This document shows, piece after piece, positions 1-3,227 of a stretch of DNA of 3,227 nt (positions are counted from its first letter, which is position 1; every line of letters begins with the position of its first letter). The notes beneath the pieces were generated by a model. It made no database searches and was not told the DNA's origin. It saw only the letters and a program-made list of their open reading frames with translations. Position numbers and translations under genes: made by a program. This stretch comes from a virus. Taxonomy: Duplodnaviria > Heunggongvirae > Uroviricota > Caudoviricetes. The stretch spans positions 1 through 3,227 of the IMG/VR virus record IMGVR_UViG_2541047736_000005; one strand, given 5' to 3'.

Positions 1-19
1 TTTTACTTCTTCATGCCAA

Positions 20-37
20 AAGGGAGCTATCTCCCTT
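20..37 (+). terminator. Candidate intrinsic terminator hairpin for a gene ending upstream of the window
   Basis: Perfect 7-bp inverted repeat AAGGGAG (20-26) / CTCCCTT (31-37) with 4-nt loop CTAT, followed by GTTTGAATTG. The U-tract is weak and the stem is only moderately GC-rich. Confidence 0.25.
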
Positions 38-148
38 GTTTGAATTGAAAAGTCCAGGCTGCAAAGTCTGGGCTTTTGTCGTATTAGGGCACGGTAAAGT
101 TTGGCTGTGCCCGTAAAAAATGGCTGGCTATACACAAGGAATGTGGCA

Positions 149-706
149 ATGAGTGGTGAAAAAAAGGCGAAAGGCTGGCGGTTCTATGGTCTTGTAGGTT
201 TTGGCGCAATAGCACTGCTTTCCGCTGGCGTCTGGGCGTTGCAATATGCTGGCAGTGGGCCAGAAAAAACGTTGTCGCCGCTGGTGGTGCACAACAATCT
301 GCAAATCGATCTCAATGAGCCGGACCTCTTTCTCGACAGCGACTCTCTGAGCCAGCTTCCCAAAGATCTCCTCACCATTCCGTTTCTCCACGATGTTCTG
401 AGCGAAGATTTCGTTTTCTATTATCAGAATCATGCCGATCGTCTGGGCATTGAAGGCAGCATTCGTCGTATTGTCTATGAACACGATCTCACGCTGAAAG
501 ATAAGCTCTTTTCGTCACTCTTAGATCAGCCCGCGCAGGCAGCGCTGTGGCACGATAAACAAGGCCATCTTTCACATTATATGGTGCTGATCCAGCGCAG
601 TGGTTTAAGCAAACTGCTGGAGCCATTGTTGTTTGCCGCTACCAGCGACAGCCAGTTAAGCAAAACGGAAATCAGTAGCATCAAGATAAATAGTGAAACT
701 ATTTGA
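149..706 (+). CDS. Hypothetical protein with N-terminal signal-anchor/TM helix, function unknown (185 aa)
   Basis: Six-frame ORF 101..706. I place the start at ATG 149 because AAGGA at 136-140 gives an 8-nt spacer, whereas the TTG at 101 has no RBS. Stop is TGA 704-706. After a basic KKAK stretch comes a hydrophobic segment WRFYGLVGFGAIALLSAGVWALQYAG, then a hydrophilic domain rich in D/E/L/S. No catalytic motif recognised by eye. Confidence 0.6.
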   Translation: MSGEKKAKGWRFYGLVGFGAIALLSAGVWALQYAGSGPEKTLSPLVVHNNLQIDLNEPDLFLDSDSLSQLPKDLLTIPFLHDVLSEDFVFYYQNHADRLGIEGSIRRIVYEHDLTLKDKLFSSLLDQPAQAALWHDKQGHLSHYMVLIQRSGLSKLLEPLLFAATSDSQLSKTEISSIKINSETI

Positions 707-781
707 TGCGCCGCGCGATAAATGCACTCTATCTTGTGCGATAAATGGCATCCACGCGGCGTTTCATTATTTGAAAAAGAA

Positions 782-1354
782 TTACATTTCAGGTTGCGTT
801 ATGACAGTCCCAACAGGGTGGTAGCGGTAGATCGTTGACAGTCCAATATCATAGATAATTGCCAGCCGCTTTCTGTCATACCCTTTCTGGAGCAATCTTG
901 CGATCTGCTCATGCTGCTCCTTCGTCAGTTTCGGGCGACGTCCTCCAACTCTCCCTTGTGCTCGCGCAGCAGCCAGTCCTGCCAGCGTGCGCTCAACTAT
1001 CAGTTCACGCTCCATTTCTGCCAGTGCACCCATCATATGAAAAAAGAACCTTCCCATCGGAGTGCTGGTATCGATTGAATCCGTCAGACTGCGAAAATTG
1101 ACACCTTTTGCGCGTAGCTCTTCTGTGAGAGCAATGAGGTGTTTCATTCTTCTACCCAACCGATCCAGCTTCCAGACCACCAATGTATCCCCTCTTTTAA
1201 GGCACTTTAAAGCGCGTTTCAGGCCTGGTCGTTCCGACTTGGTTCCGCTCATTTTGTCCTCAAAAATCTGTTCACATCCTGCGCACATTAATGCATTGCG
1301 TTGCAAATCTGTGTTTTGGTCATTTGTTGACACACGTATGTAGCCAATCAGCAT
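782..1354 (-). CDS. pin: Small serine recombinase, DNA invertase of the Hin/Gin/Cin/Pin family (190 aa)
   Basis: N-terminus MLIGYIRVSTNDQNTDLQRNAL carries the catalytic Ser in the RVST motif. Central blocks GDTLVVWKLDRLGR and SLTDSIDTSTPMGRFFFHMMGALAEMERELIVERT and a C-terminal HTH-like IGLSTIYRY match the hallmark blocks of this family. ATG is the complement of 1352-1354, with a GGGAG RBS (complement of 1363-1367, 8-nt spacer). It lies directly beside tail-fibre cassettes, as in Mu G, P1 C and e14 P. The symbol is family-level only; I cannot say which pin allele. Confidence 0.95.
   Translation of the reverse strand: MLIGYIRVSTNDQNTDLQRNALMCAGCEQIFEDKMSGTKSERPGLKRALKCLKRGDTLVVWKLDRLGRRMKHLIALTEELRAKGVNFRSLTDSIDTSTPMGRFFFHMMGALAEMERELIVERTLAGLAAARAQGRVGGRRPKLTKEQHEQIARLLQKGYDRKRLAIIYDIGLSTIYRYHPVGTVITQPEM
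1201..1261. promoter_or_regulatory. Candidate Fis-dependent recombinational enhancer inside the 5' part of the invertase gene
   Basis: Two 15-bp elements with G at position 1, C at position 15 and an AT-rich centre: GGCACTTTAAAGCGC (1201-1215, nearly palindromic about TTTAAA) and GCTCATTTTGTCCTC (1247-1261). Their centres are about 46 bp apart. In Hin/Gin/Cin systems the enhancer lies within the first ~100-180 bp of the invertase gene with two Fis sites about 48 bp apart. Pattern match only. Confidence 0.25.
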
Positions 1355-1408
1355 TAAAAATACTCCCTTTTGAGTGGTTAAAGTACTGAGATAATGTGGG
1401 GAGGATTT

Positions 1409-1434
1409 GAGAGATAAACGTTGGTTTGGGCGAA
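1409..1434. promoter_or_regulatory. Candidate recombination crossover site (gix/hix/pix-like) at the invertase-proximal border of the invertible segment
   Basis: GAGAGATAAACG TT GGTTTGGGCGAA has the AAACx-NN-GGTTT core typical of Gin/Hin crossover sites. The right half-site GGTTTGGGCGAA matches the recalled consensus GGTTTTGGATAA at 9 of 12 positions; the left half matches only in the inner AAAC. The site sits between the invertase start and the fibre cassette, and the cassette reading frame opens exactly here (in-frame TGA at 1408-1410). Confidence 0.45.
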
Positions 1435-1890
1435 ACGATAAATAAAGCCTCCGGAGCTATGCAGAAATCGGCTAATGGAGCTGATATTTCTGATGTATCA
1501 GCCTTCCGAAATGCGCTCCAGTTAGGGGCCGCCGCAACACGAGATGTTGGAGCAGATAATGCCTCGAAGTTACTGGATTTAGACAGCTTCAGGTCAATGA
1601 TGTCAGGGAATGGCTACATCTACATTCCATGCATTGCGACGACAGGAAACCCGGTGAAACTTATGTTGCAGTGGGGAACGGTGGCAACACAAAAGGGAGC
1701 TGATGCTGGATATGCCTTACCATTTGCTTTTCCCTATGCAGGCTTGTTTGCGACCGGAAACCGTGGAACATCTGGCTACAATGCCGCGATGAATGTGCGT
1801 ATTGCCAGCAGAACGCATATCAGTATTCAGAACTGGTCGCCATCCGGAGAGGGCACCGAAGATTGTTGTTTTATCGCGCTGGGGTATTAA
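1411..1890 (+). CDS. Tail-fibre C-terminal (receptor-binding tip) cassette, apparently the silent alternate arm of the inversion switch; no own start or RBS
   Basis: Frame is open from 1411 to TAA 1888-1890. The first in-frame start candidates are TTG 1426 and ATG 1459, with no convincing RBS. The product shares the motif LQLGxAAxRDVG and a C-terminal ...A[IL]GY end (CCFIALGY versus HFEAIGY) with the minus-strand fibre. Its 159 codons are similar in size to the short fibre fragments I recall next to pin in e14. Confidence 0.8.
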   Translation, partial: EINVGLGETINKASGAMQKSANGADISDVSAFRNALQLGAAATRDVGADNASKLLDLDSFRSMMSGNGYIYIPCIATTGNPVKLMLQWGTVATQKGADAGYALPFAFPYAGLFATGNRGTSGYNAAMNVRIASRTHISIQNWSPSGEGTEDCCFIALGY

Positions 1891-1892
1891 GA

Positions 1893-2303
1893 ATGAATAA
1901 ATTTTATAAAGGCTCTTTCTATCCGGAAGCACTAAAAGATGTATATATCAGCGCCGGCTCATGGCCTGAAAACGGCGTTGATGTTGATGATGAAACAATG
2001 GCAATTTACACGGGTGTCGTACCACAGGGTAAAATGCTAGGTTCCGATAAAAATGGCAACCCTGCTTGGGTGGATATTCCGCCTCTTTCAACGGAGCAAT
2101 TAGTTGCCATTATGGAGCAGAAGAAAGGGAAACTTCGTTCGATAGCCGATGCTGAAATTAGCTGGCGACAGGATGCCGTTGATGCAGGGATAGCGACGAA
2201 AGAGGAAACCGCCGCGTTATCTGAATGGAAAAAATACCGGGTCCTGCTGATGCGCGTTGATACAGCAAAACCCGTATGGCCTGTCAATCCGCAGGATATT
2301 TAA
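1893..2303 (+). CDS. Tail fibre assembly protein (Tfa chaperone), 136 aa
   Basis: ATG 1893 lies 2 nt after the fibre stop, suggesting translational coupling. The C-terminal block [31 protein letters not shown] matches the conserved C-terminal chaperone motif of lambda-type Tfa proteins as I recall it (...[25 protein letters not shown]...). The track ORF starts at 1863, but that overlaps the fibre and I prefer 1893. Stop is TAA 2301-2303. Confidence 0.85.
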   Translation: [136 protein letters not shown]

Positions 2304-2517
2304 CGGGGGCGTTGTAGGTGGTGACATATTCAAGCAGTTCTGTTGGATATGTCACCGTTGCTGCATCTCGCTCTACGTTAAATGTATCCGCTCCCCAGAT
2401 AACACACTCCCTCAAAAATGCCTCCACCTCTGGCGAGACTTCAACCGCATCATCAGGTCGCTCTTGTTCAGAAACATAAAAACCAACGGTCGTTGGGCTG
2501 AAATAGATATTCTCCAT
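2284..2517 (-). CDS. Tfa-like N-terminal domain only (77 aa); probable truncated or decayed tail fibre assembly gene
   Basis: ATG (complement of 2515-2517) lies 2 nt after the minus-strand fibre stop, the same junction architecture as the plus arm. N-terminus MENIYFSPTTVGFY...PDDAVEVSPEVEAFL resembles Tfa N-termini of the IYFSA..FY type. The ORF stops at TGA (complement of 2284-2286) without the conserved C-terminal ATKEE..W.KYRVLL.RVD block, and the track shows no minus-strand ORF that could supply it by frameshift. It overlaps the 3' end of the plus-strand tfa by 20 bp. Confidence 0.55.
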   Translation of the reverse strand: MENIYFSPTTVGFYVSEQERPDDAVEVSPEVEAFLRECVIWGADTFNVERDAATVTYPTELLEYVTTYNAPVKYPAD

Positions 2518-2519
2518 AT

Positions 2520-3227
2520 TTAGTATCCTATTGCTTCAAAATGCAGTGTCGGTGTTTCGCCGAGATTGGGTGTCGTATACGCCACAGTGAATCGCGTTCT
2601 TGATACGTCAGTGCCAGAATCAGTATCGCGATGCGTTGCCAGTGATTTTCCGGCCATTGTTGACTGGGTCGGATAGCTGTAACTCGCTAGTGTTGCCAGC
2701 GTTGCTATTTGTGCATTTGGGAATTGTCTGGGGAAATTAACCCTGTAGTAATGGGTGTAGTACGTCACCCCACCAAGCACCTGCGAGTTGAAGTTACCAA
2801 CTGGTGTCAGTGTCACAGTGCCAGCCTGTCGAATCATACCATTTGGGAGAATATCCCAGGCAGTTTGTCCGTTTCGCGACATACCAAATGCGGACATGTC
2901 CGGGAGTTGATTATTACCGGTTCCGACATCCCGTTTTGCCGCTTCTCCCAATTGAAGGTAATTGAGGACTTCTTTTATACTGCCCATAGCGATAATAGCG
3001 CGACCAATAGCTGTAAGGGTTGTCAGCGCTGCGCGGTCTGCTCCGGTAAAATAAGGCAACCGATCTGCTGCAGTGGCAAGTCCTGCCAGAGCAGTGAGCG
3101 TGGCATCTGCCGGTTGTTTTCCGTTTGCCAGATCGTATGCAGCCTTGACCGCTTTCGGTGTGGCGGCCAGTATTTCAGACGTGCTGTTGATGTCACTGCT
3201 CAATTGTACGGTGCCTTTTGCCGTCAG
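2520..3227 (-). CDS. Tail fibre protein, C-terminal portion (partial; 5' end lies beyond the right edge of the window)
   Basis: The reading frame is open from the window edge (3227) down to TAA (complement of 2520-2522); the M in the track at 3203 is a TTG inside an open frame. SDINSTSEILAATPKAVK...NGKQPADATLTALAGL...LPYF resembles the conserved region of lambda-like side tail fibres (recalled, unverified). It is followed by a divergent tip ending HFEAIGY. Confidence 0.9.
   Translation of the reverse strand: MTAKGTVQLSSDINSTSEILAATPKAVKAAYDLANGKQPADATLTALAGLATAADRLPYFTGADRAALTTLTAIGRAIIAMGSIKEVLNYLQLGEAAKRDVGTGNNQLPDMSAFGMSRNGQTAWDILPNGMIRQAGTVTLTPVGNFNSQVLGGVTYYTHYYRVNFPRQFPNAQIATLATLASYSYPTQSTMAGKSLATHRDTDSGTDVSRTRFTVAYTTPNLGETPTLHFEAIGY

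Follow-up and report, generated by a model that had tools for sequence, protein, structure and literature searches.

The nine-base sequence CGTTGGTTT at the core of one crossover site of a tail-fibre switch, and its reverse-complement copy inside a small open reading frame, very probably match by coincidence in coding sequence, each copy being fixed for a reason of its own. Both lie in the window, which is the whole stretch of 3,227 nt that was analysed (a virus of the class Caudoviricetes, IMG/VR record IMGVR_UViG_2541047736_000005, positions 1 to 3,227). The preliminary description of this DNA had listed chance among several possible origins of the match, and that reading was borne out by sequence shuffles, by scores of the candidate sites, by the absence of recombinant junctions and by synonymous variation in homologous genes.

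Bases 1419-1427 form the centre of a real Pin/Gin-type site at 1409-1434, while bases 2480-2488 spell the T-V-G-F codons of a small conserved protein encoded after the active fibre cassette. The invertase (782-1354) flips the 1.53-kb segment between 1409-1434 and 2943-2968, cutting at the central TT/AA dinucleotides (1421-1422 and 2955-2956), and the flip exchanges the fibre tip, along with its helper gene, that continues the constant part of the tail fibre in frame. On this reading, position 2485-2486, in the copy, takes no part in the inversion of the segment.

Organization of the invertible region

The layout of the window is that of a Gin/Pin-type invertible tail-fibre switch, with the following genes:

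149-706: truncated DUF2138 (YfaA-like) gene, the Pfam match of which ends at profile position 176 of 560
782-1354, minus strand: Pin/Gin-type serine DNA invertase with Resolvase and HTH_7 domains
1411-1890, plus strand: silent (unexpressed) alternative fibre C-terminal cassette with a Gp53-like_C domain
1893-2303, plus strand: tail-fibre assembly protein (Caudo_TAP), partner of the silent cassette
2284-2517, minus strand: 77-aa open reading frame of a length-conserved family, directly 3' of the active fibre cassette
2520-3227, minus strand: 3' part of the expressed tail-fibre gene, which extends beyond the edge of the window and consists of a constant part (3227 to 2969), a crossover site (site 3) and a variable Gp53-like_C cassette (2954 to 2520)

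The tfa gene on the plus strand and the 77-aa open reading frame on the minus strand are convergent, and their 3' ends overlap by 20 nt (2284-2303), an overlap that is also annotated in four relatives of the region (L001-L004). Homology to five viral and metagenome loci (L020, L026, L029, L032, and L038) starts inside tfa, at about 2148-2152, which suggests that the conserved C-terminal part of tfa is a recurrent mosaic boundary unconnected with the invertase sites. No complete E. coli genome covers at least 80% of the window, and the left junction of the window, between the truncated yfaA and pin, occurs in no complete E. coli genome. Exact searches of genome contigs for this junction and for the junction at site 3 gave no match.

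The end of the element beside the invertase lies within 699-781, where it adjoins the truncated yfaA-like gene at about position 704 (TGATGCGCCGCGCGATAAATGCACTC...). The same end, 99-99.5% identical, adjoins unrelated genes, for example lptF, dcuC, and csiE, in other E. coli genomes, and it adjoins a lambdoid side-tail-fibre open reading frame in the metagenome contig L031. It begins with 5'-TG and resembles the right end of Mu. The arrangement has the appearance of a Mu-like transposable prophage end, from which the invertase is about 80 bp away and where a mom-like gene is missing.

The crossover sites of the switch

Every 26-mer of the window was scored with a half-site weight matrix built from 16 published Din-family sites (PMC3241671 Table 3), here called the Din matrix. 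Only two positions in the window reach full-site scores:

1409-1434, plus strand: crossover site 1, pin-proximal, GAGAGATAAACG-TT-GGTTTGGGCGAA (Din matrix rank 2)
2943-2968, plus strand: crossover site 3, inside the fibre gene, TTCTCCCAATTG-AA-GGTAATTGAGGA (Din matrix rank 1)

On the same matrix the published sites score 15.6-30.5 bits and the two sites of the window 9.4 and 11.0 bits. A general search of the window for inverted repeats did not pick out this pair because sites 1 and 3 have just 13 of 26 bases in common; the pair was found through a homology breakpoint together with the weight matrix. The third-best 26-mer, at 2970-2995 (8.0 bits; TTCTTTTATACT-GC-CCATAGCGATAA), belongs to the constant part of the fibre gene and begins one base past site 3. 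It has consensus-like outer ends with mismatched inner bases and core; it may be a chance resemblance or a decayed site.

The homology breakpoint comes from two relatives of window 924-2960, a P2-like prophage (L001, CP103758) and a P1-like plasmid (L002, CP151646). Both are identical to the window up to position 2960 and unrelated to it thereafter, so that the break falls within the 26-mer 2943-2968, and at the corresponding position L002 reads TTCTCCCAATTG-AA-GGTATTGGATAA. Between L001 and a third relative, L003 (CP016182), the whole segment of about 1.55 kb is inverted. The boundaries of the inverted segment in L003 are the hybrid sites TTCTCACATACC-TT-GGTTTGGGAGAA and TTCTCCCAATTG-AA-CGTTTATGAAAA, and therefore half-sites were exchanged at the central dinucleotide. 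Such hybrid sites are seen in L003, L004, and L031. The last of these, the metagenome contig, matches window 704-1422 at 100% identity in its pin region, to which window 1881-2959 is joined in the opposite orientation (99.8% identical), and it carries the exact hybrid that sites 1 and 3 of the window predict, GAGAGATAAACG-TT-CAATTGGGAGAA (= GAGAGATAAACGTTCAATTGGGAGAA). An inversion between sites 1 and 3 keeps the reading frame of the fibre gene, changing ...KEVLNYL-QLGEAAK... to ...KEVLNYL-GLGETINK....

Published sites of the tail-fibre inversion region in prophage Phi2 of E. coli EC958 (EC958 Phi2) agree with this assignment. Its crossover sites, GAGAGATAAACG-TT-GGTTTGGGGGAA and TCCTCAATTACC-TT-GGTTTAGGAGAA (PMC4134206 Table 3), were both defined from PacBio alternate alleles (PMC4134206). 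Site 1 of the window matches the 3' site of EC958 Phi2 at 25 of 26 positions, and site 3 has the same outer half as the 5' site. Taken together, 1409-1434 and 2943-2968 are shown to be working Din-family crossover sites that exchange at their cores. The outcome is a corrected map of the switch, with sites at 1409-1434 and 2943-2968 and cores at 1421-1422 and 2955-2956.

The inner half of site 3 reads TTCTCCCAATTG rather than the usual ...AAACC beside the core. This half-site has nevertheless recombined in nature, as seen in L003, L004, L031, and the 130 genomes with a flipped junction described below, which suggests that the invertase is tolerant of changes at inner positions of a half-site.

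Min-type multi-site systems had also been mentioned in the preliminary description, and in such a system the copy of the 9-mer would be one of more than two working sites. Multi-site systems do exist, as exemplified by the six mix sites of p15B (PMC3241671 Table 3), and the mix and pixR sites are similar to site 1 (AAACC-AA-CGTTT). With a third working site, the region would be a multi-site switch of the Min kind located in a chromosomal prophage. Against this stand the two full-scoring positions, which are the only ones in the window, and the natural variants found, in all of which the 1.53-1.55-kb segment is inverted in its entirety; junctions from the inversion of sub-segments were absent from the collections searched. 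More than two sites bounding invertible sub-segments, the hallmark of a Min-type system, were thus not found in the window or its variants, and we regard this origin of the match as exceedingly unlikely.

The nine-base match and its expected frequency

The two copies of the 9-mer are placed as follows:

1419-1427, plus strand: CGTTGGTTT, within the real pin-proximal crossover site, comprising the core TT with 2 nt from the outer half and 5 nt from the inner half
2480-2488, minus strand: reverse-complement copy, codons 10-13 (T-V-G-F) of the 77-aa open reading frame

The recurrence of CGTTGGTTT at 1419-1427 (plus) as its reverse complement at 2480-2488 was confirmed, and no further copy with up to one mismatch exists in the window. 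Apart from the copy, no near match to the core had been reported in the preliminary description; this holds for the 9-mer itself, but the description overlooked the real partner site at 2943-2968, where the bases next to the core are CAATTG-AA-GG, compared with AAACC-AA-CG. The codon phase is indeed shared, as had been pointed out, with AAC GTT GGT TTG (N-V-G-L, in the silent fibre cassette) on the plus strand and ACC GTT GGT TTT (T-V-G-F, residues 10-13 of the 77-aa open reading frame) on the minus strand. For such an agreement in phase the prior probability is one in three. The poor match of the flanks was also verified, with the overall count corrected from 12 to 13 of 26 positions; outside the 9-mer, 4 of 17 positions are equal between the two 26-bp frames.

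Dinucleotide-preserving shuffles of the window served as the model of chance. The rarity estimated in the preliminary description was about right for one given 9-mer, a second copy of which appeared in 3% of shuffles (0.03), yet it answers the wrong question: the probability for a single 9-mer is not relevant because this 9-mer was selected after looking. Some 9-mer match over the core dinucleotide occurred in 15.5% of shuffles, and when all 9-mers of the 26-bp site are allowed, the share of shuffles with a match is 31.6%. The window as a whole contains 29 exact inverted pairs of 9-mers, compared with 27.9 ± 6.7 in the shuffles. Given these rates and the agreement of the number of pairs with the shuffled expectation, the match is no better than chance.

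Site quality of the copy

Crossover sites of the Din family are 26 bp long, and the corresponding frame around the copy of the 9-mer is:

2473-2498, plus strand: 'site 2', the 26-bp frame of the 9-mer copy, AACATAAAAACC-AA-CGGTCGTTGGGC

This frame scores -4.4 bits with the Din matrix and ranks 30th of 3,202 26-mers. Its resemblance to a Din half-site is confined to one half: the left half, AACATAAAAACC, scores +7.8 bits and is the seventh best of 6,432 half-sites in the window, whereas the right half, CGGTCGTTGGGC, scores -12.1 bits (rank 3,059 of 6,432), which is the random level. All published sites conserve outer positions of the TTxTC type, and both halves of site 2 lack them. The central dinucleotides, AA at 2485-2486 (plus) and TT at 1421-1422 (plus), are identical in inverted orientation, but with 16 dinucleotides possible, this identity alone is weak evidence for a site. 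The frame 2473-2498 therefore lacks the pair of inverted 12-bp half-sites, each fitting the family consensus and flanking a 2-bp core, that is required of a Din-family (Hin/Gin/Cin/Pin) crossover site, and we infer that the invertase does not bind it. More generally, a short match to a core in coding sequence does not make a site unless both half-sites are present.

The copy could instead be a cryptic quasi-site that recombines with site 1 on very rare occasions, the resulting 1.06-kb inversion being a non-adaptive by-product. Iida and Hiestand-Nauer (1987, Mol Gen Genet 208:464) reportedly found that P1 Cin can recombine, at very low frequency, at 'quasi' sites with little similarity to the real one, provided that the central dinucleotide matches. 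The core dinucleotide and the orientation of the copy are compatible with inversion against site 1, the five inner bases of one half and two bases of the other are identical to those of site 1, and the left half has the high score given above. These features have to be weighed against a right half at the random level, the lack of conserved outer positions in either half, and several other half-sites in the window that score equally high or higher. If this reading were true, Pin would occasionally disable the 77-aa helper and join its first 11 codons to the silent cassette. Together with the junction searches below, the balance makes use of the copy as a quasi-site improbable.

Search for recombination products at the copy

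Recombination between sites 1 and 2 would invert the 1.06-kb segment 1421-2486 and create two junctions, predicted as ...GATAAACGTTGGTTTTTATGTTTC... and ...GCCCAAACCAACGGTCGTTGGG.... The inversion is predicted to place the peptide MENIYFSPTTV in front of the silent cassette, with the constant fibre part missing from the fusion, and to leave the remainder of the 77-aa open reading frame without a start codon. Such products would be non-functional, with no apparent function for the exchange, which is a further point against a quasi-site.

A 200-nt query centred on site 2 matched 159 E. coli records, 158 of which cover it in full, and the last match also spans the site. The full-length junction of sites 1 and 2 was found in none of the 294 E. 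coli records that carry its two halves, a count that reflects fixed or majority states, as events below about one in a few hundred lineages and minorities within a culture are invisible in assembled genomes. The junction of sites 1 and 3, used as a positive control, is common, occurring in 132 E. coli records (130 genomes). Likewise, a 21-mer specific for recombinants between sites 1 and 2 was found in no viral contigs and no metagenome contigs, compared with 7 occurrences of the parental 21-mer in viral contigs and 12 in metagenome contigs. The other junction of sites 1 and 2 was absent from viral contigs. A deletion between sites 2 and 3, which are in direct orientation, was considered as an additional product, and its junction was also absent from viral contigs. 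Among the loci that carry the parental 21-mer (L020-L038), none ends its homology to the window at 2485, contig ends aside.

Products of exchange at the copy of the 9-mer are thus shown to be absent from the collections searched. The preliminary description had itself proposed that a lack of support for recombination at this position would speak against a site, and such support is lacking throughout the assembled records and contigs searched.

The 77-aa open reading frame

The protein family of the 77-aa open reading frame comprises 34 clusters from Escherichia, Citrobacter, Enterobacter, and Phytobacter, and its members are mostly exactly 77 aa long. Two residues, G12 and F13, never vary in the family, and T10 and Y14 are almost invariant. 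Close relatives of the gene all carry the 9-mer, but they are uninformative in this respect because the whole open reading frame is at least 99% identical among them. As a distant blastn search of plasmids and phages returned only copies at least 99% identical, homologues identified at the protein level were used. One 85% identical copy (H99/L005) was left out of the evidence on account of its assembly, in which several genes are broken.

The diverged homologues do not carry the 9-mer. L014 and L015 have ACG GTG GGT TTT (GGTGGGTTT), and L016 and L017 have ACA GTT GGC TTC (AGTTGGCTT); in both cases T-V-G-F-Y is kept and two bases of the 9-mer are changed. L012 has ACA TTA GGG TTT (ATTAGGGTT) for T-L-G-F and differs at 4 of 9 bases. 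Since synonymous bases vary while the peptide is kept, the DNA at 2480-2488 is constrained via the protein alone. Judged from these sequences, the copy is no more constant than its coding requires. It had been anticipated that an unrelated sequence at this position in related prophages would count against a site, and the diverged relatives do have a different sequence here. The earlier suggestion of a cryptic or secondary crossover site is consequently not upheld, considering the poor second half-site, the lack of a recombinant junction, and synonymous bases that are free to vary.

A different history of the copy from that favoured here would be a scar, left when a site-specific rearrangement at an ancestral crossover site cut a full-length tfa down to 77 codons. 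Residues 1-31 of the open reading frame do match the N-terminus of a tail fibre assembly protein family (PHROG 188, E 9e-5), and the open reading frame is shorter than the adjoining 136-aa Tfa and has no Caudo_TAP match. However, the 9-mer is located at codons 10-13, whereas a truncation would show at the 3' end, and the length of the family is conserved across the four genera named above. In P2-like phages, where the gene order is fibre gene, 77-aa open reading frame, and tail sheath, the gene lies right after the fibre gene without an invertase nearby: no invertase gene was called near it in L014, L015, or L017, and none is apparent in L012. The predicted structure of the protein is a complete and compact α/β domain (mean pLDDT 92). 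Moreover, the flanks of the 9-mer retain no remnant of a half-site, given their match at 4 of 17 positions, and the 9-mer is missing from diverged homologues. With a family conserved in length, found also where there is no invertase, and a compact predicted fold, the idea of a scar from tfa truncation, put forward in the preliminary description, is scarcely credible, and a chance match within a complete gene is the preferred reading.

In the window, L001-L004, L012, and L014-L019, the 77-aa gene starts 2-3 nt past the stop codon of a Gp53-like_C fibre gene. No Pfam match at E ≤ 0.01, including Caudo_TAP (PF02413), was found for the 77-aa protein, and it has no BLASTP similarity to the neighbouring 136-aa Tfa. 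No significant match among PDB structures was found by sequence or by fold, and comparison of folds gave weak matches to viral Tfa models (E 0.02-0.035). The basis of the label 'Tfa-like' is therefore limited to the N-terminal PHROG match and the position of the gene. The protein is probably a minimal fibre-tip chaperone, and its family is length-conserved, unannotated, located directly after Gp53-like_C fibre genes, and without a solved structural relative.

In two Mu-like metagenome loci (L018 and L019), codons 6-17 of the homologue, which include the 9-mer, are identical to those of the window, and the overall nucleotide identity of the gene is about 72%. The homologue is followed there by two tiny open reading frames on the opposite strand (55 and 42 aa) and then by a resolvase-family gene, an arrangement that may be a decayed invertible segment.

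Comparison with known systems

Sites 1 and 3 of the window share with the Din-family sites (hix, gix, cix, pix, mix, and bix) the 12-2-12 layout and the central AA/TT, and site 1 is close to the pixR and mix sites (…CCCAAACC-AA-CGTTTAT…). The copy of the 9-mer has AAACC-AA-CG alone in common with these sites and lacks a second half-site. Its nearest counterparts would be the quasi-cix sites of P1 Cin, which reportedly also combine low overall similarity with an identical central dinucleotide; quasi-cix sites are said to have been defined by recovered recombinants, whereas none was found at the copy in the collections searched.

The G segment and gin of phage Mu resemble the window in several respects. 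In both, the invertase adjoins one end of a transposable-type prophage, a crossover site divides the S-like fibre gene, and there are two alternative tips, each with a helper gene of its own. Unlike Mu, the window has Gp53-like_C tips, a 77-aa protein takes the place of a full Tfa/U as one of its helpers, and there is no mom-like gene between the invertase and the end of the element.

Another close system is EC958 Phi2, which, like the window, has an invertase, invertible fibre tip cassettes and a constant fibre part (PMC4134206), in addition to the near-identical site 1 and the shared outer half of site 3. The inner half of site 3 reads TTCTCCCAATTG in the window and TTCTCCTAAACC in EC958 Phi2. 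The invertible segment of EC958 Phi2 is 2,067 bp long with 227-bp imperfect inverted repeats, whereas the window has a different cassette pair of 1,534 bp. Inversion in EC958 Phi2 has been demonstrated by PacBio alternate alleles (PMC4134206), and the system in the window is an ordinary two-site Pin/Gin-type tail-fibre switch of the kind already described there.
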